A stretch of DNA of 64,000 nt from an uncultured Bacilli bacterium (GCA_905235515.1 CAJOLV010000003.1:5680-69679), one strand, 5' to 3'; counted from the stretch's first letter, positions 37,712 to 63,415 are shown. Notes: generated by a model not told the origin, from the sequence alone. Translations and numbers: made by a program.

Positions 37712-39403
37712 TTACTTCTTTTTTGACTGGTTTTTGATGGATTTTTTGACAGTTTTCTTAATAGTGTTATTTACTTTCTTTTTGGCTTTTTTACTACCAA
37801 ATTTAGCAAATAGAACAATGACAACGATTAATAAAACTAATAAACCAACACCACAAACGATAAACCACACTTTGTTGGCTTCAAAGAAAGTTTTGAAATC
37901 AAAGGATGATTGGTTTTCATTATCATCACTTTGTGGGGTAGTTTCTCCATCAGATGACTTCTTTTCACTAACGACAATTTTAAATGTTTTAGATTGTTGA
38001 ACGCCACCAATTGTCGCGGTTGCAATAACCTTTGTTTCGCCGTCTTTTAAAGCAGTAACTGTAACTGATTCACCTGATGCTGTTGATGTCTTATCTAACG
38101 AAGCAATTGTGCTATCTTCAACAGACCAAGTAATTGGACTATCATCTTCTGTTGTGGCTTTTAATGTCTTAGTGTTGCCAACTTCAAATGTCGCTTGAGG
38201 AGTTCCGACTTCTTCAAGTTTTAATAATTCACTATCGTTGATTGAATCTGTCGCCGGATTTGCAGCACCTGTTGGAGTGGAAACATATGTGCCGTTATTT
38301 GATTGACCCCATACATATTCTGCCCATTGAGGGAAGTCGATGAATGGATTTCTATTATTTGTGTAATTGTTATAACAAAGATTGTTTCTATGAATTTCCC
38401 ATTCATCTGGTGGATCAATTCTATTCCATTCAAGTAAGTCTTGAAGAATGCCCATCTTACCAGTCTTTGTGGTTGTGGAATAATATTCTGCTTTCACAAA
38501 AGAGGTAACATTGTTAACGATTTCAAGGTTTGGATTGCCAGAATCAATGCCATCAGAATCAGAACCAGATAAATAATTATATCTAGCCGCCATATAGAAG
38601 ATTGCTCTAGCAATATCACCTTTATCACTATCTTGTGGTTCAAAAACAGGATTGGTGCCACCAAAGGTTTTTGATGTCCCTTTTAAGTTACCAGCTAAAT
38701 ATGGATAATCATTGCCAGCGTCATCATATGATTGATTTTTATCAACAAAGCCATAATACCAGTTATTATGGTGATAGCCATTAACTCTACCATTGCCCGC
38801 CCAAAGGTGCATAATATCACCACGAGCCCCTGTACCATATTCATCTTGACCGAACCCTGCTGATTTAGGCCAAATATGTTCTTGGTTGATGCCATAATTT
38901 GTTTGAGTGTGGTCACCCCACGCTTTGGTGCCATTTTCTTTATCTCTATTCACGTATAAAGCGTGAATATATGGGTTCATACCTGGTGAACTAGCACTTT
39001 TACCATAACTATAGTTAGTAATTGTGTTTGTTGCAGCGTCATATCCCGGAATAGCGGACGCTGGAGATTTTTCCCAATCACGATCCACTATTTCATACAT
39101 TTGCCAAACTGCTGTTGTTGCGCCACTACCATAGGAGAAATATTTTTGATTATTTTTAAGAATAGGTTTTAAATTCTTTAATAAATTAGTGCCTTGTCTT
39201 TCGCTTTCTGGTAAAGATGATAAGCTAGAATAATAAGCACGGATATCACTATCGCTTAAATCATTTAAATTAATATTTTTCGTTACCGAACTTGTTGGAT
39301 AGGAAGTTGCTAACACTTCTTTATAAGAATTTCCTTTTAAAAAACCAACCGAAGCAAAAGTTAATGCAATAGATAATACTGATAATGGGATGATTTTTTT
39401 CAT
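37712..39403 (-). CDS. Membrane-anchored extracellular endonuclease-I-family nuclease with Big2-like domain
   Basis: The true start ATG at 39403 follows an AGGAGG RBS (MKKIIPLSVLSIALTFASVG signal peptide). The Endonuclease_1 motif is EHIWPKS...DIMHLWAGNGRVN. An Ig-like Big2 segment is present (TFEVGNTKTLKAT...VTVTALKDGETKV). The C-terminus has a TM helix plus a lysine-rich tail. The ORF-track 5' extension to 39532 is unsupported. Confidence 0.7.
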   Translation of the reverse strand: MKKIIPLSVLSIALTFASVGFLKGNSYKEVLATSYPTSSVTKNINLNDLSDSDIRAYYSSLSSLPESERQGTNLLKNLKPILKNNQKYFSYGSGATTAVWQMYEIVDRDWEKSPASAIPGYDAATNTITNYSYGKSASSPGMNPYIHALYVNRDKENGTKAWGDHTQTNYGINQEHIWPKSAGFGQDEYGTGARGDIMHLWAGNGRVNGYHHNNWYYGFVDKNQSYDDAGNDYPYLAGNLKGTSKTFGGTNPVFEPQDSDKGDIARAIFYMAARYNYLSGSDSDGIDSGNPNLEIVNNVTSFVKAEYYSTTTKTGKMGILQDLLEWNRIDPPDEWEIHRNNLCYNNYTNNRNPFIDFPQWAEYVWGQSNNGTYVSTPTGAANPATDSINDSELLKLEEVGTPQATFEVGNTKTLKATTEDDSPITWSVEDSTIASLDKTSTASGESVTVTALKDGETKVIATATIGGVQQSKTFKIVVSEKKSSDGETTPQSDDNENQSSFDFKTFFEANKVWFIVCGVGLLVLLIVVIVLFAKFGSKKAKKKVNNTIKKTVKKSIKNQSKKK

Positions 39404-39516
39404 ATTTTTCCTCCTTGATATCTCTATATCATTATCCTTATTTAAGGATAGATTAACAAGTTTTTTCACTTTTAAGTGTTTCTTTATTCCATAAAAGAGT
39501 GATAAAATGATTTCGT

Positions 39517-40950
39517 ATGTACGACGTAACAATCATTGGTGCTGGTATTACCGGCACGCTCATTGCGAGGGAACTTTCTAAATACCAACTTTCGGTTGCA
39601 GTTTTAGAGAAGTGCAATGATGTGGGCAATGGCACCACAAACGCTAACTCAGCGATTATTCACTCTGGCTATGACCCAGTCCCAGGGACATTAAAAGCCA
39701 AATTCAACGTTCTTGGTAATCCAATGTATGACCAACTCACTAAGGAATTAGATGTTCCTTTCTATCGACTTGGTTCTTTAACTGTCGCTATCCACGACTC
39801 TCAGTTGCCACTACTCCAAGAACTCGCCGAACGCTCCAAAGTAAATGGGGTTCCAGTCAAACTATTAGATAGAGGGGAAACTTTAGCGATGGAACCTAAC
39901 ATTAACCCAGAAGTAAAGGCATCCTTATATGCCCCAACATGTGGCATTATTGACCCGTTCAACTTAACTGTAAGAGCGATGGAAAACGCTATTGATAACG
40001 GGGTTAAGCTTTTCTTAAGTCAAGAAGTTATCGCTATTAAAAAAGTTAATGACCATTATGAGGTTCAAACCAAAAAAGGCGTTTTTGAAACCAAAGTAGT
40101 TATTAATGCTGCAGGTAATTATGCAGATAAAATTGCCGCAATGGTTGAACCAATTGATTGGAATATTTCTCCAAGAAAAGGTGAATATTTTGTCTTAGAT
40201 CACTATAAAGCAGGTTTAGTCAATCGCACCATTTTCCCATTACCAAGTGAAAAAGGTAAAGGTATTTTAGTCAGTGTCACAACATCTGGTAACTATATCG
40301 TTGGTCCATCTAGTGAGCCAATTCCCAATAAAGATGATGTCTCTACCGATGCAGAAACATTAAGAAATGTCCGCTCTCAAGCTACTGACTTAGTGCCTTT
40401 TATTCCATTTAACCAAGTGATTAGAACATTCTCTGGTAATAGACCAAGTTGTTCAAGACACGATTTCATCATTGAATATGCAAAATCTGATAAACAATTT
40501 ATTAACGTGGCGGGTATTGAATCTCCAGGTATTGCTTCTTCACCCGCTATCGCTAAATATGTTGTCGAAGAATTAGTAAAACCTTTGATTGAACTAAAGG
40601 AAAATCCATCATTCAATCCTAATGTGAGAAAAGTTCATAGGTTATATTATGAGAATTTAGAACATGATTATACCTATAGCAATGAACATGAAAATTATAG
40701 TGAAGTAATTTGCTCTTGTGAAAAGGTCACCTTAGGTGAAATCTTAGATCAATTAAATAGAAGTTGCCCACCTCATTCTGTTAAAGGCGTAAAAAGAAGA
40801 ACGAGAGCAGGCTTTGGCAAATGCCAAGGTGGTTTCTGCCAATCTAAGATTGTTCTTTTACTCGCTAAACACTATGGAGTGTCTCCATTAGATATCCCAC
40901 TAGATGATGAAGGCAGTAACATTCTACTAGAAGAGGTGAAGCCATTATGA
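39517..40950 (+). CDS. FAD-dependent oxidoreductase (GlpA/LhgO-like glycerol-3-phosphate dehydrogenase family) with C-terminal BFD-like [2Fe-2S] domain
   Basis: 477 aa. N-terminal FAD motif VTIIGAGITGTLIAREL. C-terminal CSCEKV...C-x-G-x-C (CQGGFCQ) is a BFD-like domain. First gene of a conserved three-gene cluster. Confidence 0.8.
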   Translation: MYDVTIIGAGITGTLIARELSKYQLSVAVLEKCNDVGNGTTNANSAIIHSGYDPVPGTLKAKFNVLGNPMYDQLTKELDVPFYRLGSLTVAIHDSQLPLLQELAERSKVNGVPVKLLDRGETLAMEPNINPEVKASLYAPTCGIIDPFNLTVRAMENAIDNGVKLFLSQEVIAIKKVNDHYEVQTKKGVFETKVVINAAGNYADKIAAMVEPIDWNISPRKGEYFVLDHYKAGLVNRTIFPLPSEKGKGILVSVTTSGNYIVGPSSEPIPNKDDVSTDAETLRNVRSQATDLVPFIPFNQVIRTFSGNRPSCSRHDFIIEYAKSDKQFINVAGIESPGIASSPAIAKYVVEELVKPLIELKENPSFNPNVRKVHRLYYENLEHDYTYSNEHENYSEVICSCEKVTLGEILDQLNRSCPPHSVKGVKRRTRAGFGKCQGGFCQSKIVLLLAKHYGVSPLDIPLDDEGSNILLEEVKPL

Positions 40951-54035: not shown

Positions 54036-54770
54036 TTATTTAAATGCGTTCTTATCAAATGTTATCAATTTATATCCGTGAATTTGAAAATAAAAATCGT
54101 TAACATAGTTTTTAATCCATTCAACCTTTGAAATTGAACTTTCATTATGATTGTCATGGGCTAAGATGGCAGAATTTATGATATTATTAGCAACTCTATT
54201 TTTTAACGCTTTTCGAATCTTTTCATTAAAGAAGAATAGCGGATTTACACACACGGATGAATCTGAGTCTTTAAAAAACGGTTTATCAAATTGCCTTGTA
54301 GGCATGGATTCGATATCAATATTTTCTAAAACATTTTTATCAATAATTGTTCTAGGGTATATAGCCACTTTGGATTCAAGCTCATAAGCTCTAATTAACG
54401 ATTCACCTAAAACTATTTCAGAATCAATATGAAGCAACCCTTTAACGATTGCACCACGAACAAGTAATTCATAAACTGATAAACATTCTACAGCAAAACC
54501 AGCAGCAACATTAAAAAGCGAATTGAGTGATTCGGTTGGATTATCACCATTAATTTTCACAGCAAATAAAAAATTATCTGAAAAAGATCTAATAATCACA
54601 TCTTTTGAACGATGTTTTTTTATAAAATTGCTGACAAGCCAAAGCTTAGAAAAAGTGCTTTTTTCATCTTTTTTTAAGCTTGCCTTTGTACCCAAGGCAT
54701 CAAAATATGCAACGTAATACTCTTCACACGTCAATTCTTTATCTGGTAAGCCGTTGATAATCAAGCTCAT
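54036..54770 (-). CDS. Hypothetical protein (244 aa), third gene of the AbiEi-like/ATPase operon, with weak class-III nucleotidyl-cyclase-like sequence features
   Basis: Translationally coupled to the upstream ATPase. Segments YFDALGTKA and, about 40 aa later, IRSFSDNFLFAV resemble the two metal-binding Asp strands of cyclase/palm domains. VLGESLIRAYELES resembles the cyclase signature VWGDTVNLASRMES, but the key N and R are not conserved. No confident family assignment. Confidence 0.5.
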   Translation of the reverse strand: MSLIINGLPDKELTCEEYYVAYFDALGTKASLKKDEKSTFSKLWLVSNFIKKHRSKDVIIRSFSDNFLFAVKINGDNPTESLNSLFNVAAGFAVECLSVYELLVRGAIVKGLLHIDSEIVLGESLIRAYELESKVAIYPRTIIDKNVLENIDIESMPTRQFDKPFFKDSDSSVCVNPLFFFNEKIRKALKNRVANNIINSAILAHDNHNESSISKVEWIKNYVNDFYFQIHGYKLITFDKNAFK

Positions 54771-56011
54771 TAGTTAAACCGCCTATTCTCTTCCATGAAC
54801 TTCATTAAGTTTGCATGTATAATTCCGTTTCTCTTTTGGATTAAGAAATCTGTAGTCAATACATACTTAGGAAAATTATCTTGAATCTTTTCTAAAGGAG
54901 CATACTCTCTATTTTCTGTATCTTCACTGCTTAAGATAGTATATGCAACTTGAACATAAGAATAATTTAAGAATAAGTCTTTCAAGATAAAATCACATTC
55001 TAATGCGCCAATTCTACCAACTGATACATCATAGTTCTTAGATTTGGCATAAAGATATGCAACATTTTCCAGTGCGGGTCCGTAGTTAATTTTGCTATTT
55101 GGATTTGTAAATTGTGCAAACGATAAGTCGGCTAGATAGTATTTCTTTTCATTTTGAAACATCTTTCTGGACTTCATATCGAATCTGCCACATTCATAAA
55201 TAATCTTGGCATCAATCAGATGTTGAATATACTTCGCTACTGTGCGGAATTGGATGGCAATGCCATTCTTGTTTAAATCTTTAACAATGTTATTAATGCT
55301 GGTTGTGGCTCCATAATTATTAATGATGTAATCTCTAACCAAATTAAAGACTTCGACATTCTTGATTTTTACTCGCTTCTTAATGTCTTTCTTAAAGATT
55401 TCGTCCACTATTTCACTAATGTATACTTTTTTAGCGGCGATATCAGGTAAGAACAGTGTTCTTGGAAAACCGCCTTCAACAATATAGTGTTCTAATTCAA
55501 TAGAAAGATTTCCGTCCACTGGCATCTTGTAGAATTTTTTCATGTCTAAGTATTCGTAGAAATTAAGAGGAAAAACCTCAAATTCAAGATATCGTCCAGT
55601 AAGATGCGTCATCAATTCTCCGCTGAGAAGATAGGAATTGCTACCAGTTATGAAAATTGAATAATCTTCTTCAGCTCTAAATGCATTTATCATTCTCTCG
55701 AAATCTTTAACATTTTGAATCTCATCAATAAATAAATACTTAGTGCCTTTTATTCCTTTGGATAATTTATCAATCAATTCTTCAAGAGCATCCGGAGTTT
55801 TAATCTTTGTATATCCTCTTTTATCTAAATCAATATAAATAATATTGTTAGGATTCACTCCACCTTCAACTATTTCCTCACTTATCATTTGCATGATGGA
55901 AGATTTTCCGGATCTACGAACACCAGTAATAACTTTAATTAAATCATTTTCATGGTAAAAAGGTCTGATTCTAGATAAATAATTTTCTCTTTTGTAAAGC
56001 TTCTTTTTCAT
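54770..56011 (-). CDS. COG1373-type AAA+ ATPase (AAA_14 domain + C-terminal DUF4143)
   Basis: Walker A GVRRSGKSS about 35 aa from the ATG at 56011 and Walker B LFIDEIQ. The C-terminal region has the DUF4143 length and pattern. The ORF-track start at 56065 adds 18 aa with no RBS. Confidence 0.8.
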   Translation of the reverse strand: MKKKLYKRENYLSRIRPFYHENDLIKVITGVRRSGKSSIMQMISEEIVEGGVNPNNIIYIDLDKRGYTKIKTPDALEELIDKLSKGIKGTKYLFIDEIQNVKDFERMINAFRAEEDYSIFITGSNSYLLSGELMTHLTGRYLEFEVFPLNFYEYLDMKKFYKMPVDGNLSIELEHYIVEGGFPRTLFLPDIAAKKVYISEIVDEIFKKDIKKRVKIKNVEVFNLVRDYIINNYGATTSINNIVKDLNKNGIAIQFRTVAKYIQHLIDAKIIYECGRFDMKSRKMFQNEKKYYLADLSFAQFTNPNSKINYGPALENVAYLYAKSKNYDVSVGRIGALECDFILKDLFLNYSYVQVAYTILSSEDTENREYAPLEKIQDNFPKYVLTTDFLIQKRNGIIHANLMKFMEENRRFN

Positions 56012-56118
56012 ATTTTCTGACTCTATATTATCTATTTTTCTAGTTAAATGCAAGTTATCGCACAATAATTTACAATATTTTAAGATTTTAGTGCCATAAC
56101 CGCCATTTATCTCACATT

Positions 56119-56745
56119 TTATAGTCCTAACAGCAGATTGTGGATATTATTTTCGATTCCTAAATTATCTAGTACGGTCTTCAATCTAACAAATGTTATC
56201 TGATTGTATTCGGCTAAAAGATGTGTCGTAATATATTCATCTTTATATCCTTTGGCGAGTTCATTTAAAACTTCGATATTCTCTAAGCATTCAATCTTTG
56301 TTTGTTGGCTTAATATTTCAAGAAGCTCTCTAAAGGATCTATTGTCTTTAGTTATCATTGTTTTAGTTGGAATAATCTTGTTATTGCCAATAGCCTTATT
56401 CCTTTTTACATAGCACTTAATCTCAACGCAACTAGGCGCATCTTCTATTAATCTATATTTATATAATAAGGATAGGCCTGATAGCATTCCGTAGTTATTA
56501 TCAACATAGAAATCTACCATTGCTTTTTGAATATCTTCTTCAGTTGGATTCTTGCCAATATAATAAACACCTTTACCAATCTGGGTCATTTTAAGAACAG
56601 CGTTAGCTCTAGTGAGATATTGCCTAAAAGAATCGAAATCATTTGTTTGAAAATAGTGGGTAGCTAAAATCTCCACATCAAATATGGTGTTCTGATGTGT
56701 TCTCCCATAATTAATAATTTGTTGTACGATAGATAAATTTTCCAT
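56119..56745 (-). CDS. AbiEi-family-like regulator/antitoxin (winged HTH)
   Basis: 208 aa. RANAVLKMTQIGKGVYYIG (the xGVY motif of the AbiEi N-domain) and YGMLSGLSLLYKYRLIED (the GxLSGxSA...GL-like motif). First gene of an operon with the AAA ATPase. Confidence 0.5.
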   Translation of the reverse strand: MENLSIVQQIINYGRTHQNTIFDVEILATHYFQTNDFDSFRQYLTRANAVLKMTQIGKGVYYIGKNPTEEDIQKAMVDFYVDNNYGMLSGLSLLYKYRLIEDAPSCVEIKCYVKRNKAIGNNKIIPTKTMITKDNRSFRELLEILSQQTKIECLENIEVLNELAKGYKDEYITTHLLAEYNQITFVRLKTVLDNLGIENNIHNLLLGL

Positions 56746-57248: not shown

Positions 57249-58349
57249 TTAAAATGATCCAAATTTCGGATTCTTTCTAGCATTCATGTATGCGCATTTT
57301 CTTAATTCACTATATAGTTCCTTATCTTGAAGCGCTAATTGAATTTTTTGTTTATATTTGCCAAAAAAACAGGTTGAATCAAGTATCTCAACTGAGCCAA
57401 TATCGTTATTGAACAATATTTTGGTCGCCAAAACATAAACTTTTGTTGCCATTTTAATGAGCGCTTCACTAGAAACACTTCCGCCTAAAACATAGGCATT
57501 AAAACCATTTAATCCTTGCATTAAAATTTTATATTCATCTTTTGGACCAAACTCACCATAATCAATAATGTTTGAACAAGTCAAAATCGTGTCTTCCAAA
57601 CAATCTTCGACTTTATTGACATTCTTATAATAAGGGATCGAATTAGTTATTAATTTACGATATGTTTTAGAAATTAATTCAAAATCAGTTGAATAATCGA
57701 GAAGAGTAGAAACATCATATAACTGTTTAATTATCTCAATATGTTTTGGTCTTTCATCTTTATAATAGTCGGTGAATTTAATACCAGATGTATGAGGGGC
57801 AAATGCCACTAATTTGTCGCCAATTAATTCATCAACGGTTGGTAAATTAACTTTATAAAACGGCTCTTCAAAAACAAATAACTCATTATCTATATTTTTA
57901 ATTTGAACAACAGAATAAGTATTGTCTTCAAAAACAATATCTAGCAAAACAAAAGACTCCTCAACTTCTTCGTCGATTATGGATTCATAATTAAACTGAA
58001 AATGGGCTTTGTCTACACCTGGTTTTGGTGGTCTTATTTGTTCATTAATTTCGCTAAAGAAATCAGACTTAATGTTTTTAATTTTGTTGATAATTTCTTC
58101 TTTTTTGCTATTTGGACACAAAATGTCTATATCAATAGATAGACGATTCAACTTATTCAAGAGAAGCAAAATCGAAGTGCCGCCTTTAAAAATAAAATCG
58201 ATCTCGTTTTCCACTAGTGTTTCCAAAACTTTAAAAGCATATGCAAGTTTCTCTAAATGTTCATTACTTACATTTTGAGTTTTGGCTATTTTATTTATTC
58301 TTTCTTTGTCGAAGTTTTTATTGCTAATCATATCGTATTGCCCTCTCAA
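57249..58349 (-). CDS. AbiEii/AbiGii-family nucleotidyltransferase (type IV TA toxin)
   Basis: 366 aa. The FIFKGGTSILLLL...RLSIDIDIL pattern matches the AbiEii GGT(S/A)L and RxSxDxD motifs. Overlaps the upstream partner by 26 nt. Confidence 0.8.
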   Translation of the reverse strand: MRGQYDMISNKNFDKERINKIAKTQNVSNEHLEKLAYAFKVLETLVENEIDFIFKGGTSILLLLNKLNRLSIDIDILCPNSKKEEIINKIKNIKSDFFSEINEQIRPPKPGVDKAHFQFNYESIIDEEVEESFVLLDIVFEDNTYSVVQIKNIDNELFVFEEPFYKVNLPTVDELIGDKLVAFAPHTSGIKFTDYYKDERPKHIEIIKQLYDVSTLLDYSTDFELISKTYRKLITNSIPYYKNVNKVEDCLEDTILTCSNIIDYGEFGPKDEYKILMQGLNGFNAYVLGGSVSSEALIKMATKVYVLATKILFNNDIGSVEILDSTCFFGKYKQKIQLALQDKELYSELRKCAYMNARKNPKFGSF

Positions 58350-59085
58350 ATTCTGGGTTTGCTTTTTTCAATGTTGATAAAACTTTTTGTTGTCTATTTC
58401 TTTTGGTGGCATAACGAAGAAGGGTAGAATAATTGATGGAATACCGTTTGATTAGTTCGGAGTAAATATGTGGTATCTCATTAGATAACATTTCATCCAA
58501 AAAAGAATCTGAAACAATATCCACCATCATTTTTTCCAATTTAGGCTGCGTTAATCTAGGGCCTTCTTCTTTCTTTTTGCACCTGTAAATGGGTGCATCT
58601 TCATTAAAATTTTTCACTACATAAATCGTTCTATCTGTATTGTATTTTGAAAAAGTTTTCAAATCTTTATAGAAAACCGCAGAAATTCCTTTTTCTTTTA
58701 ATTTATTAATCACATGTTCTGTTGCAAACTTCTGGCACTCAAAGATAACGAAGTTCTTATTCGGAATCAAATGCGAGTATTTTGAAATCCAAGACGAATC
58801 CCAAACAGAAACATCATAATCAATAACATCTCCTTCAAAATAAAAGAAATATTTATCCAACATCTTTTTTTTGAAAGAAGGAAGAATGTTATTAATTTTG
58901 TATTTGTTAAAACTATATTTGGAGATAATGTTGTCTTTGCAAAGCTCATCCACAACCATATAAATCTCGTGTTGTTCCTTTATTTTCATTTGTGACGAAA
59001 CAATCTTAAAAAGTTCATCTTTGGCGATGAAGTCACTTTTTTTGGCTTTCTCTTCAATAATTACAATCAATTTCCTATTTTTCAT
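58324..59085 (-). CDS. AbiEi-like antitoxin / transcriptional regulator partner of AbiEii
   Basis: 253-aa gene immediately upstream of, and overlapping, the AbiEii NTase gene (the canonical AbiEi-AbiEii arrangement). Assignment is mainly positional; sequence similarity to AbiEi is weak. Confidence 0.5.
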   Translation of the reverse strand: MKNRKLIVIIEEKAKKSDFIAKDELFKIVSSQMKIKEQHEIYMVVDELCKDNIISKYSFNKYKINNILPSFKKKMLDKYFFYFEGDVIDYDVSVWDSSWISKYSHLIPNKNFVIFECQKFATEHVINKLKEKGISAVFYKDLKTFSKYNTDRTIYVVKNFNEDAPIYRCKKKEEGPRLTQPKLEKMMVDIVSDSFLDEMLSNEIPHIYSELIKRYSINYSTLLRYATKRNRQQKVLSTLKKANPEFERAIRYD

Positions 59086-59218: not shown

Positions 59219-60508
59219 TCATTTGCCATAATGCAGTTTAACACCATCAATTAATACTGATTTAAATTTTGTAAATTGATAATAATACTCCCAAATATAT
59301 AAAATAGCGGTAAATAGATCAACACACATCTTTCCAAATTCCAAAAAAGAAGTTTTATATGTTTTTGTGCCGTTTTTTGTTTTATTTATAAAAGTGACTT
59401 CTTGATTAAGACCATCGGTAAAAATAGAATTATGGCCTTCTGCATTTCTAATAATGTTATTTAGAACGCCCCTTATTCCATCAAACAAATCGGAATTGTT
59501 ATTAGTAAAGTATTCATATTTGTTATATTTTGAGCCCATGCCATTTAATCTTTCGTTGAAATCATATATTCCTGTATCAAAGTGGTTATATGTTCCGTTA
59601 GTTTCAATGTTATAAAGCCCAACCAATAAATCTATTGAATCGCAAAGAAGTTCAAATCCCTTTTTATACAAAACCGCTAAGTCATCAATAGATATTGTTG
59701 AGACCCCTTGTTTTGTAAAATCAATATTACCGAATTTATCAAAGTTATCATAAACAGGCAAAAGCTGGTCAACACATTTGATGTAGTCGATTATGTAAGA
59801 AGGCATCTTAAAAAGATACGTTTTGAAGTAATCATTATCAAGATTGTTTAAATAATCTTTTACAGACAAAACATGCTTTTTAACTATGCGTCTAGTCTTT
59901 TCATTCATTATTTGATACATATTGTTAAAAACACCTTCAGGCATTATTGGTTGTAGCAAAGAATTTACATAATGTTTTGTTGCTAACATAGCATCTAACT
60001 CATTGATTATGTTGTTTGCATTATTGTGTTTATTGAGTTCGACTAAGATATTCTCGTTCGTGTTTAAAAAATACTTTCTAATTAAATCCACTCTATTGGT
60101 GCTTAATAAGTTATAAATGTTCTCAATTTTATTAATGTAAATATCAGATTGATTAACAAAATATAAAAGATTTTGCATCCTTTGGTTCTTAGAAGGAGTA
60201 GTAAAACCTCTTCTTACAAACATGCTCATTTGAACATCAGTTGTTTCATCTCTTTGTTTATACTTATCGATTAAGAATTCTGTTGCTAGTTCGAGTACAT
60301 AATTATAATCTTTATTGTTTGTTTCTGTGGCGCCGATAATGTTTTCGCTTATCGTGGTGTTTTTATTGTCGATCACTATTGTTCCAGAAATATGGCAATT
60401 ACATTTTGGACAATAGATGCTTACAGGAATATTAAAATAACCAACTTGATATCTAAGTCTTAATAAACAATTACAATAATTGCATTTATAAATACTATTT
60501 CTAACCAT
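59219..60508 (-). CDS. Zinc-ribbon protein with C-terminal HEPN-like RX4H motif (possible Abi-type effector)
   Basis: 429 aa. N-terminal CNYCNC...CPKCNC zinc ribbon. C-terminal IIRNAEGHNSIF fits the HEPN R-x4-6-H motif. Sits 58 nt downstream of the DGQHR gene on the same strand. Confidence 0.45.
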   Translation of the reverse strand: MVRNSIYKCNYCNCLLRLRYQVGYFNIPVSIYCPKCNCHISGTIVIDNKNTTISENIIGATETNNKDYNYVLELATEFLIDKYKQRDETTDVQMSMFVRRGFTTPSKNQRMQNLLYFVNQSDIYINKIENIYNLLSTNRVDLIRKYFLNTNENILVELNKHNNANNIINELDAMLATKHYVNSLLQPIMPEGVFNNMYQIMNEKTRRIVKKHVLSVKDYLNNLDNDYFKTYLFKMPSYIIDYIKCVDQLLPVYDNFDKFGNIDFTKQGVSTISIDDLAVLYKKGFELLCDSIDLLVGLYNIETNGTYNHFDTGIYDFNERLNGMGSKYNKYEYFTNNNSDLFDGIRGVLNNIIRNAEGHNSIFTDGLNQEVTFINKTKNGTKTYKTSFLEFGKMCVDLFTAILYIWEYYYQFTKFKSVLIDGVKLHYGK

Positions 60509-60566
60509 GTGTGATTATTTCAAAATTTGCTGGCCATTAAACGGGTGACAAACTTGCATAAATGTT

Positions 60567-62366
60567 TTACAAACTATCTCTATTTTGCTTGTTAATTGCA
60601 GGAATGATTAAGGCCTTTGCAAATTTACTATATTGTGCTCCTGCATATGGAAAATTAGTATTATCCGAAGAAAAATCTAAATTAAAATCTCTAAAGGCGT
60701 TCAAATAAAAATCATAATTTTTTGGTCCTTGTGTGTTAGCAAGCGTCTCTTTAAAAGCAATGATAAATGCGTTCAAAGAAATGACTTTCAACAAGCGAGA
60801 GTTTTTATCCCAATAATTTAAAAATCTTCCTTTAATTGCTTTAAAATAAGTTCGCAATGAATTAGCACAATATTTTATATAGTCCTCAATATCTTTGCTT
60901 TGCTCTAGAACAAAATCATTACTATAGTTATTCTTTTTTAACCAATACTTATAAAGGCTTGTTGGCACATTCTTTGCCACAAGAAGACTAGACATAGCGT
61001 ATTGTATGATTGATGCGATTTTTATAGGAGCGTCATCAGTCTTAGATAATTGAAACATATTTTCAAAAGGTGCATCGTTATTTAACAATTCTATAACTCT
61101 TCTAGAAACAGCTTCCCCAGAAGTTGGATTCATAATTGCTTGAATCTGAATGAGGGTATCTGCATCAACAGGTTTAGCGTTTTTATTAATTGACACAAAC
61201 AATTCGCTTTCAAACCTTCTCCTTTCGGACAAATGTTTGTATTTTTCATTATCTGGATAAATAATGCCGGTGACTAATAAATTGTATGAATCACGCATTG
61301 GTTTAATTAATTGTTCATCCGTATTATCTTTGTCACAATCTTCATAAAACGCAAAAACACGATGTTGACCATCAATAATGCCAATCGAATTATATTCAGT
61401 TGGAATCTCCATCATAATATTATTATCAAAGCGAACAACATTATCTAATATCACTGTTTCTCTATTGTCTTTGTTAAAGAAGCGAACTCCATCTGGCAAT
61501 GTGACAATAATGTTGTTAATAAATGTTGTTTTCTTTGCAATAACAAAATCTCTAATAGATTTGATTCTTTTAACGGTTAATAATCTTTGATACATATCTG
61601 GTTGTTTTTCCCAACCATCTTTTCTTAAAACATATGAATATTTAATTAAATCGATTGGTTTCATCATAAAAGAAACCATTCTTATGCCGTCCTTGTATCC
61701 AGTCACAGAATCTGGATAAATGATCGGAGTAACTATTGGTAAATTAACTGAATTCCCGGAAGGGTCTGGTTTTCCAATATCTTGAATTCGTAATTTTAAA
61801 TATTTAAATAATTCATATTTGAAAGATGCTTTAATGCTTTTTGACATCAAACAAAAATAACTAAAAGTAGATTTATCAATAAGATTTAAATGTGTGTACC
61901 TTTCAATATCTTCCTTGATATATCTTGTGATTCCATATTCGAAATATAAATAATAAATATTAAACTCTTGTTGTGTGTATCTTTGAAGTGTCTCTTCGCT
62001 CGGGAATTTATCTCTTAAAAGTTTGATAAACGAGGCTTTTTCCGTTTCTCTTATAATTTTAGACGTTTCTTCTTTTTCTAATTTGTGGTTTTTATTAAAC
62101 GGCATACCAGCCGCCAAAGCTTGTTCTTTTTCTTTGACAAACCTTATTGTGTCTTCACAAATGATGATTATGTTTTCGTAGATGAAACAGTGATCTAATT
62201 CATTTTGCTTTCCACCGAGAAGAAATTGCCAACCCTTAACACTTAATTTTGTAAAACCAGATAAAACAAATATGTTCTCAATTTGTTTAGAAAATGCATC
62301 TCTTTTCTTTTTCTCCGCAAGTTGTTCTTTGGTTAGTTTTGGCTTTTTGTTCTTTTTCTTTACCAT
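60567..62366 (-). CDS. DGQHR-domain protein (DndB-like, ParB/Srx-fold)
   Basis: 599 aa. The hallmark IIDGQHRVFAF motif is followed by an FVSINKNAKPV-type conserved segment. Has a lysine-rich N-terminus. The start overlaps the stop of the upstream methyltransferase by 7 nt. Confidence 0.8.
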   Translation of the reverse strand: MVKKKNKKPKLTKEQLAEKKKRDAFSKQIENIFVLSGFTKLSVKGWQFLLGGKQNELDHCFIYENIIIICEDTIRFVKEKEQALAAGMPFNKNHKLEKEETSKIIRETEKASFIKLLRDKFPSEETLQRYTQQEFNIYYLYFEYGITRYIKEDIERYTHLNLIDKSTFSYFCLMSKSIKASFKYELFKYLKLRIQDIGKPDPSGNSVNLPIVTPIIYPDSVTGYKDGIRMVSFMMKPIDLIKYSYVLRKDGWEKQPDMYQRLLTVKRIKSIRDFVIAKKTTFINNIIVTLPDGVRFFNKDNRETVILDNVVRFDNNIMMEIPTEYNSIGIIDGQHRVFAFYEDCDKDNTDEQLIKPMRDSYNLLVTGIIYPDNEKYKHLSERRRFESELFVSINKNAKPVDADTLIQIQAIMNPTSGEAVSRRVIELLNNDAPFENMFQLSKTDDAPIKIASIIQYAMSSLLVAKNVPTSLYKYWLKKNNYSNDFVLEQSKDIEDYIKYCANSLRTYFKAIKGRFLNYWDKNSRLLKVISLNAFIIAFKETLANTQGPKNYDFYLNAFRDFNLDFSSDNTNFPYAGAQYSKFAKALIIPAINKQNRDSL

Positions 62367-63259
62367 TTGAAATCCTCCGGTTTCTGAGCCACCTTTTGAG
62401 TCAAATCTGGTTCAATCACTGGAACATCTGGCCTATACTCAATCGTTCCTTCAATAGCCTTTGCAATACGTTCTTCTGCAATTGCTACATACTCTTTTTT
62501 GAGTTCACATCCAATAAATTTTCTTTTTTCCATTACGCAAGCAACCGCTGTTGTTCCACTACCAAAAAAAGGATCTACAACAACATCGTTCTCATTTGTA
62601 AGGGCTCTGATTAAACGTTGTGGAATTACTATTGGAAATTGGCACGGATGATCCGTTTTTTCAACGTGATTAGCTTTGACATTTGGAATTTCCCAAACAT
62701 CAGAAGGGTTTTTGCCTAAAGGATTGCCACTGAATTGACCGGCTTTTTTTCCTCTATAATATTTTTTGCCAGGATATTTTTGAGGAACCCTAATCATATC
62801 GAGATTAAAAGTATATTCTTTTCCTTTGGTGCACCAGAGAATTGTTTCATATCTACCACTGAGTCTTTTTTCGGCATTAAGGCCATGACCAAAAGTCCAG
62901 ATTATCCTGTTCCTTAAAAGCATTTGTGAGTCAGGTTCAAGATTCTCATTAATTTTTTGAATGATATTATAAATAATAATATCTAATGGAATAGATACTG
63001 AATCCTTAATATGAAATCCAACTTGCCAACACAAACTGCCACCTTTTTTTAATATACGGATAGACTCTCTAAGAACTTTCTCATTCAATGATGAAAAGGA
63101 CTTGATGTCATCTTTAATATTTTCATATTCTTTACCCATGCAATATGGCGGAGAAGTTACAACTAAAGAGACAGATTCATCATCAATTTTCTTTAATATT
63201 TTAAGGCAATCTTCGTTATATAGCCTTATATCATCCGATTGGAAACTAATTGTTTTCAT
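62360..63259 (-). CDS. DNA methyltransferase, beta-class amino-MTase (SPPY motif IV; probably N4-cytosine or N6-adenine)
   Basis: 299 aa. Motif IV TSPPY near the N-terminus and motif I DPFFGSGTT near the C-terminus, which is the beta-class order. ParB-like/MTase-associated context. Confidence 0.88.
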   Translation of the reverse strand: MKTISFQSDDIRLYNEDCLKILKKIDDESVSLVVTSPPYCMGKEYENIKDDIKSFSSLNEKVLRESIRILKKGGSLCWQVGFHIKDSVSIPLDIIIYNIIQKINENLEPDSQMLLRNRIIWTFGHGLNAEKRLSGRYETILWCTKGKEYTFNLDMIRVPQKYPGKKYYRGKKAGQFSGNPLGKNPSDVWEIPNVKANHVEKTDHPCQFPIVIPQRLIRALTNENDVVVDPFFGSGTTAVACVMEKRKFIGCELKKEYVAIAEERIAKAIEGTIEYRPDVPVIEPDLTQKVAQKPEDFKW

Positions 63260-63415
63260 TTTTAATAGTTTGTCCTATTTATTAATTTAACTTTTAGTTA
63301 ATTAGTTTTCAATCAAAATAAAGAGAATACTAACTAACCACCAGCTCTTTATTTTAGGAAAAAAGAAACAATTTTTAAATTGTATTAAAGAATGAGAATT
63401 ATGATAATAATTATA

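Follow-up and report, generated by a model that had tools for sequence, protein, structure and literature searches.

Proteins of the ParB fold are nucleoside triphosphate (NTP) switches that bind CTP, ATP or GTP and act as NTP-gated sliding clamps; one DndB-like protein binds both ATP and GTP (PMC12704722). In GmrSD, SspE and BrxU, which have a role in defence, a DNA nuclease is joined to an NTPase of the ParB/sulfiredoxin (Srx) fold that contains a DGQ(Q/H)R motif (PMC4619093). In phages, the ParB-CTPase fold occurs fused to N6_N4 methyltransferases, where it is thought to serve anti-defence (PMC12704722), and a survey of 2013 remarked, in generic terms, that ParB-like domains of the COG1479/DGQHR type are sometimes fused to PD-(D/E)xK nucleases (PMC3632139). 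Here, we describe a gene pair found on 64,000 nucleotides (nt) of DNA from an uncultured Bacilli bacterium (GCA_905235515.1, CAJOLV010000003.1:5680–69679; this whole stretch is referred to as the window), which encodes a DNA methyltransferase (MTase) and a DGQHR domain protein of 599 amino acids (aa). We read the pair, with moderate confidence, as a mobile restriction-modification (R-M) cassette in which the methylase would protect the host and its partner would be a nucleotide-gated nuclease. Full-text literature searches returned no description of an MTase-DGQHR pair; REBASE was outside their scope, and an earlier unpublished assignment is possible.

The pair belongs to three open reading frames (ORFs) that lie co-oriented on the minus strand of the window. 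All three are real genes and not chance ORFs, because each has many full-length homologues. Their positions, the 7-nt overlap between the first two and the spacing of 58 nt between the second and the third had been given by an earlier reading of the sequence alone (hereafter, the sequence-only reading) and were all confirmed:

62360–63259, minus strand: MTase gene, 299 aa, beta-class amino-DNA methyltransferase with an SPPY motif
60567–62366, minus strand: DGQHR gene, 599 aa, PD-(D/E)XK-DGQHR protein, the proposed restriction subunit
62360–62366, minus strand: 7-nt overlap of MTase stop and DGQHR start (ATGGTAA), translational coupling, methylase (M) before restriction (R) gene
59219–60508, minus strand: zinc-ribbon gene, 429 aa, neighbour outside the conserved module

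A genome scan covering one genome per species returned 80 loci. The MTase gene adjoins the DGQHR gene in all of the 79 loci in which the flank is present, the 80th being cut by the end of a contig. Carriers are found among Bacillota, Campylobacter, Actinomycetota, Bacteroidota, Sphingopyxis, Saccharibacteria, Kiritimatiellae, Verrucomicrobia, Methanoperedens and Methanosarcinales; strains in culture that have the pair are Campylobacter concisus H32O-S1, Butyricicoccus pullicaecorum ET57, Gorillibacterium timonense SN4, Salegentibacter salinarum DSM 23400, Spirosoma validum BT704 and Arsenicibacter rosenii SM-1. A PF01555 MTase gene was also present directly upstream of the DGQHR gene in all metagenome contexts examined (at 65% and 55% identity, at 39% identity beside integrases, and at 42% identity between guaA and pyrD), with the other neighbours being wholly different. 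The stop/start overlap is often kept in the metagenome loci, and the ATGGTAA overlap recurs in L003 and L007. When the search was turned around, both of two MTase homologues that had been picked without regard to their context were followed directly downstream by a DGQHR gene. Among 76 non-redundant pairs, 74 are co-oriented and either overlap or lie within 42 nt of each other; the two divergently oriented ones are actinobacterial. Across the same 76 pairs, the identity matrices of the MTase and the DGQHR protein correlate with r = 0.68 (Mantel; 0 of 2,000 permutations gave a value as high), with the MTase varying less than its partner (mean identity 53% versus 43%). By these three measures (adjacency, the reciprocal search and co-variation), the two genes are passed on together, which bears out the pairing that the sequence-only reading had proposed, whereas "orphan", as it had called the MTase, is the wrong word for an enzyme that always has a DGQHR partner.

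The conserved unit is two genes, MTase and DGQHR, and not three, because all 80 genome loci lack the zinc-ribbon gene, which is found alone in other defence islands. The cassette is horizontally mobile, since the contexts in which it resides are unrelated: it separates guaA from pyrD in one locus, adjoins integrases in another, and elsewhere is part of a defence island. Apart from the DGQHR gene, no conserved neighbour able to serve as a nuclease was found. Departures from the intact pair were few. In a Saccharibacteria metagenome-assembled genome (L093:6001–7723), the MTase gene is intact and the DGQHR gene is frameshifted at about residue 181–188, due either to decay of the R gene or to an assembly error. 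The only MTase-less homologue is a 365-aa DGQHR remnant (L107:4001–5098 and L108:2405–3502; residues 240–590, 63% identity), which is devoid of the nuclease domain as well and adjoins a T5orf172/MUG113 gene and Ku/LigD.

The MTase contains the S-adenosylmethionine-binding and catalytic motifs of a site-specific DNA methyltransferase. It matches PF01555 (N6_N4_Mtase; E = 3.3e-57) and type II MTase models of PADLOC (up to 246 bits for MTase_II), and its closest solved structure is M.RsrI (E = 1e-33). The SPPY motif is present in 73 of the 76 partner MTases. Judged from this motif, which we take to denote N4-methylcytosine (m4C) formation in beta-class MTases, the product is probably m4C at a specific site of the host DNA. 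Other PF01555 subtypes occur in the most distant loci, both longer SPPY forms (423–477 aa) and DPPY or DPPF forms. The source annotations of the homologues read "site-specific DNA-methyltransferase" only and give no specificity.

The AF2 model of the 599-aa protein, built from 54 family members, had a mean predicted local distance difference test score (pLDDT) of 88.5 and a predicted template modelling score of 0.83. It places the following features along the gene:

61797–62330, minus strand: N-terminal PD-(D/E)XK-fold domain, residues 13–190
62193–62195, minus strand: D58 of the nuclease-fold domain
62154–62156, minus strand: E71 of the nuclease-fold domain
62148–62150, minus strand: T73 of the nuclease-fold domain
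61167–61682, minus strand: DGQHR (ParB/Srx-fold) domain, residues 229–400
61359–61373, minus strand: D-G-Q-H-R motif within the ParB/Srx domain, part of IDGQHR at residues 331–336
60570–61166, minus strand: C-terminal all-helical domain, residues 401–599, from the secondary structure of the AF2 model

Residues 13–190 form an alpha-beta-beta-beta-alpha-beta domain (pLDDT 94.4 when modelled alone), which, in the model, is a PD-(D/E)XK restriction-nuclease fold. Among the structures listed for it are AF1548 (score 9.6), the small subunit of R.BspD6I (9.2), N.BspD6I (8.6), Can2 (8.4), FokI (7.7), NgoMIV and BstEII (both 7.2), HindIII (6.9), PspGI (6.7) and SduA (6.6). The domain had been invisible to the sequence-only reading, and its discovery lends substance to the proposal made there that the DGQHR protein may be an anti-DNA component. 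The motif of the family reads E56-x-D58 ... N65 ... E71-x-T73 ... H94-x3-K98. D58 would open the second core strand and E71-x-T73 would close the third, which are the usual positions of PD and (D/E)xK when the modelled secondary structure is held against what is generally known of the fold. Of the motif residues, D58, N65, E71 and H94 do not vary in any of the 76 members and K98 is retained in 74, in a set that reaches down to 29% identity. The gene next to the MTase gene, then, has the E, D and T of the motif in a PD-(D/E)XK fold, the lysine is missing, and a catalytic role is predicted. The domain has no Pfam family match and no PDB sequence match. Sequence-level searches with either the full protein or its N-terminal domain against solved structures and Pfam gave noise only, and the protein matched neither a restriction-enzyme model of PADLOC (PADLOC-DB v2) nor a Pfam restriction-enzyme family. 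When 1.84 billion representatives were searched with a profile, the nuclease-fold domain was found in only 345 proteins, always N-terminally, and the lengths of these proteins fit one architecture or its fragments.

Residues 229–400 are, again in the model, a ParB/Srx fold. Assignment to the DGQHR superfamily follows from the pentapeptide, the QR pair, the FxxxN motif and a TIGR03187 score of 86.4 bits (cut-off 58.85; residues 232–540), a match that takes in the helical domain up to about residue 540. The hallmark residues (Q260-R261, D332-R336, F390 and N394) are all invariant in the 76 members. No conserved Rx4-6H motif, as in HEPN domains, is present in the helical tail. Neither Pfam, NCBIfam nor PADLOC gave a helicase or ResIII match for the protein, its model contains no RecA-like domains, and no match to PF03235 (DUF262/GmrSD_N) or to HNH was obtained in Pfam. 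The family comprises more than 1,400 clusters at 90% identity, mostly full length (570–650 aa), which NCBI names "DGQHR domain-containing protein" and nothing else.

Compared with described systems, the pair resembles type II R-M systems of the FokI or BspD6I/Nt.BstNBI type in that a separate small MTase is combined with one nuclease gene in a mobile two-gene cassette, with M upstream of and coupled to R. It also shares their PD-(D/E)XK fold, BspD6I and FokI being among the nearest structures of the nuclease-fold domain. It differs from them by having E-x-T instead of (D/E)-x-K, by the involvement of an NTP that is to be expected for a DGQHR protein, and by the lack of any match of that protein to the restriction-enzyme families searched. 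To our knowledge, no characterized type II enzyme contains a ParB/Srx DGQHR domain. The closest functional analogy is probably offered by GmrSD, SspE and BrxU as NTP-gated nucleases. Those enzymes, however, require modification or sense it, no protective methylase accompanies them, and their nuclease is a C-terminal HNH domain (DUF1524), whereas here it is of the PD-(D/E)XK type and N-terminal. The 599-aa protein also does not have their arrangement of N-terminal DUF262 and C-terminal DUF1524 HNH. With Type III R-M systems (Mod and Res), the pair has in common the order of mod and res with an overlap, a PF01555 MTase, and a PD-(D/E)XK domain and an NTPase switch that share one polypeptide. It is unlike them because this NTPase is of the ParB/Srx type, no superfamily 2 helicase-type ATPase was found, and Mod is twice as large as the MTase. 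In the phage ParB-methyltransferase fusions, the ParB fold is likewise associated with PF01555, a recurrent combination (PMC12704722), but these fusions are single polypeptides without a nuclease domain, whereas here the genes are separate and the ParB-like protein carries the nuclease.

DndB and DpdB share with the 599-aa protein the DGQHR domain with its QR, DGQHR and FxxxN motifs, the helical tail, and the position of the gene beside that of a DNA-modifying enzyme. In contrast to them, the protein has an additional N-terminal nuclease domain, the DGQHR and DpdB models aligning only from about residue 230, and the pair in the window has no DndACDE or DpdA neighbours. Its scores are 20.1 bits with PF14072 (cut-off 29.1) and 38 with TIGR04172 (DGQHR_dnd_1; cut-off 450) for DndB, and 41.7 bits with NF041060 (cut-off 300) for DpdB. 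No Dnd, Ssp or Dpd genes were found among the nine large ORFs at 52–64 kb, ten of the larger ORFs at 34–52 kb, which are housekeeping genes, or the genes called in the 7 kb past the window end. In the annotated related loci, dndC, dndD, dndE and sspABCD are absent as neighbours and no annotated locus contains a gene of the TGT family (DpdA). The idea that the pair is left over from a Dnd, Ssp or Dpd cluster was rejected because no such neighbours were seen among the ORFs and loci scanned and the equivalog scores are far under their cut-offs; the sequence-only reading had likewise placed it outside any dnd or ssp cluster.

The analysis shows that the genes form a pair which is strictly conserved and co-inherited, and it shows the folds of both domains, as modelled, and the residues that never vary. 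An R-M system with an undescribed nuclease architecture is the most likely interpretation. It is favoured because the pairing with a DNA methylase is strict, reciprocal and co-inherited within a mobile cassette, because M precedes R with an overlapping stop and start, because both putative active sites are deeply conserved, because the nuclease domain is exclusive to one architecture, and because no other conserved neighbour could be the nuclease. The decay patterns, too, fit a toxic R gene, the DGQHR gene being frameshifted beside an intact MTase in one case (L093), and MTase and nuclease domain being lost together in the other (L107/L108).

The type of methylation, the dependence on NTP, the subunit that reads the site, and cleavage itself are the predicted parts of the scheme. 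The MTase would mark a specific site in the host DNA, probably as m4C. The N-terminal domain would be a cleavage module of the FokI/BspD6I type with the motif E-x-D58 ... E71-x-T73, and H94 and K98 in the next helix would probably stand in for the missing basic residue. The DGQHR ParB/Srx domain is predicted to bind NTP and to be the switch, and the helical tail, which is common to DndB and DpdB, may bind DNA. On unmethylated DNA, the ParB-like domain would license the nuclease through NTP-dependent dimerization, clamping or sliding, and methylated sites would give no licence to cut. This role is assigned to the ParB-like domain by analogy with NTP-switch proteins of the ParB fold and with DUF262-HNH enzymes. 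A more far-reaching proposal, which we put forward tentatively and regard as rather unlikely, is that the pair represents a new class of NTP-dependent restriction enzyme. A switch of the ParB type, and not a helicase or translocase motor, would here couple recognition of the unmethylated site to cleavage by the fused PD-(D/E)XK domain via clamp closure and sliding, possibly in a Type III-like complex in which the small methylase reads the site.

Two observations weigh against restriction. Where the (D/E)xK motif has its lysine, 72 of 76 members have a threonine (T73), so that catalysis is not assured. The same lysine is also replaced in BamHI and BglII. Furthermore, both DGQHR proteins that have been characterized act on the side of modification or its regulation, DndB as a regulator and DpdB as an ATPase helper of DpdA (PMC4507180; PMC10164549). 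Both observations are accommodated by the main rival, a serious one despite the low probability we assign to it, namely that the DGQHR protein is a helper or regulator of modification. Its NTP binding would load, target or repress the MTase, the pair would serve as a regulated module for methylation alone, epigenetic or anti-restriction in function, and would not restrict DNA, and the PD-(D/E)XK domain would have degenerated into a module for DNA binding. Consistent with this are the only family-level relatives, which are DGQHR proteins (TIGR03187), and the weak matches to DpdB and DndB, although the scores with these two equivalogs are far under the cut-offs. The invariance of D58, E71, N65 and H94 over very deep divergence, on the other hand, is hard to explain for a dead domain. 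Moreover, small beta-class MTases of the type II kind require no helper, the cassette, a mobile unit, shows enrichment in defence islands, and the decay patterns fit a toxic partner. About equally improbable is a Type III-like holoenzyme, a sub-variant of the R-M reading and not its true opposite. The DGQHR protein, having no specificity of its own, would be active solely when bound to the MTase, which would read the site, in the way that Res depends on Mod, and an NTP switch of the ParB type would take the place of the helicase-type ATPase that triggers sliding in EcoP15I. The mod-then-res order of overlapping genes and the membership of the MTase in PF01555, the family of Type III Mod, speak for it, as do the pairing of the DGQHR family with several MTase subtypes (300-aa SPPY, 430–470-aa SPPY, and DPPY/DPPF), the co-variation of MTase and DGQHR proteins, and the fact that ParB-fold proteins are NTP-gated sliding clamps (PMC12704722). 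The MTase of the window, however, is compact with its 299 aa, its closest solved relative is the type II enzyme M.RsrI, and the genes are divergent in the two actinobacterial loci. Mod subunits of Type III systems are far longer than 299 aa.

That the zinc-ribbon protein completes a three-gene module, as a second, HEPN-like effector beside MTase and DGQHR protein, had also been suggested by the sequence-only reading. The gene is co-oriented and only 58 nt downstream of the DGQHR gene, and no clear terminator between them was recognized by scanning and by folding of the spacer, which is uninformative in such AT-rich DNA. The 429-aa protein has an N-terminal CxxC...CPxC with nearly invariant cysteines and a C-terminal RNAEGH (Rx4H), of which R354-N355 and H359 (RNxxxH, a HEPN-type motif) do not vary within a family of about 30 clusters. 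It matched no HEPN family, and nothing in Pfam, PADLOC, PHROGs or PDB; NCBIfam gave one sub-threshold match only (E = 0.007). Gene neighbourhoods contradict the three-gene module, which was rejected and is held to be very improbable. Besides being absent from all genome loci, the zinc-ribbon gene accompanies the pair in metagenomes only on the contig of the window itself and on a fragment whose genes are identical (L001, L002). Its homologues stand alone beside unrelated systems: directly after JetABCD (Wadjet; L020), between Shedu-like genes and FRG/AbiH genes (L019), and next to a pair of GmrSD_N and HEPN genes (L018). The zinc-ribbon gene lies outside the module and probably constitutes a separate defence candidate of one gene; its product is a candidate single-gene abortive-infection effector.

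A second potential third gene is a family of small ORFs (∼80–96 aa) that are convergent with the DGQHR gene and abut or slightly overlap its 3′ end:

L033:7700–7990, minus strand: small convergent ORF
L039:7713–7955, minus strand: small convergent ORF
L048, L051, L052, L061, L063, L070, L077, L085 and L090: small convergent ORF

With 12 of the 71 genome loci in which a downstream ORF was called, and with no member in the window, this family was rejected as a conserved third gene; it has no Pfam match and may have an accessory or regulatory role within a single clade. An ORF of 78 aa in a comparable position (L009–L013:7736–7972, minus strand) probably belongs to the same small family. At L097:5732–6496 and L100:132–563, archaeal pairs have small flanking proteins that contain two CxxC pairs together with a D...QxK-like pattern; going by these motifs, the small proteins are possibly zinc-ribbon PD-(D/E)XK nucleases.

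In the window, the three genes are located in a defence island beside AbiH and AbiE, as the sequence-only reading had recognized:

63260–63414, no strand assigned: divergent intergenic region between the MTase operon (minus) and abiH (plus), presumed promoter region
63415 to window end, plus strand: AbiH N-terminus, divergent from the MTase operon
58324–59085: AbiEi, downstream of the three ORFs, paired with AbiEii
57249–58349: AbiEii, downstream of the three ORFs, paired with AbiEi

A scan of the intergenic region returned consensus-level promoter matches only, and no more of them than in shuffled sequence; its role as promoter is presumed. Beyond the AbiEi/AbiEii pair, the island contains a second AbiEi-like gene, PDC-S01 and SoFic, and housekeeping genes start below ∼52 kb. 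The second AbiEi-like antitoxin gene (56119–56745, minus strand; PADLOC AbiEi, E = 1.7e-15) has no directly adjoining AbiEii toxin gene and is separated from the complete pair by ∼500 nt holding small ORFs only. At 54036–56065 (minus strand), a 244-aa ORF without family match overlaps the gene for PDC-S01 (an AAA_14/DUF4143 ATPase) by 1 nt, and the two are possibly a two-gene defence unit. Outside the island, a 606-aa protein with an Endonuclease I domain (PF04231) is encoded among housekeeping genes (37712–39532, minus strand).

A likely mis-annotation is corrected here: a DGQHR gene paired with an MTase gene should not be taken for the relic of a Dnd or Dpd system. Should the pair restrict DNA, a widespread restriction-enzyme architecture, reaching from gut Bacillota and Campylobacter to Methanoperedens, would have been missed by current annotation. 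It would offer a simple two-gene model for a ParB-like switch gating a nuclease and might supply biotechnology with a new enzyme. The theme of the ParB-fold NTP switch would then extend past chromosome segregation to classical, methylation-guarded restriction.

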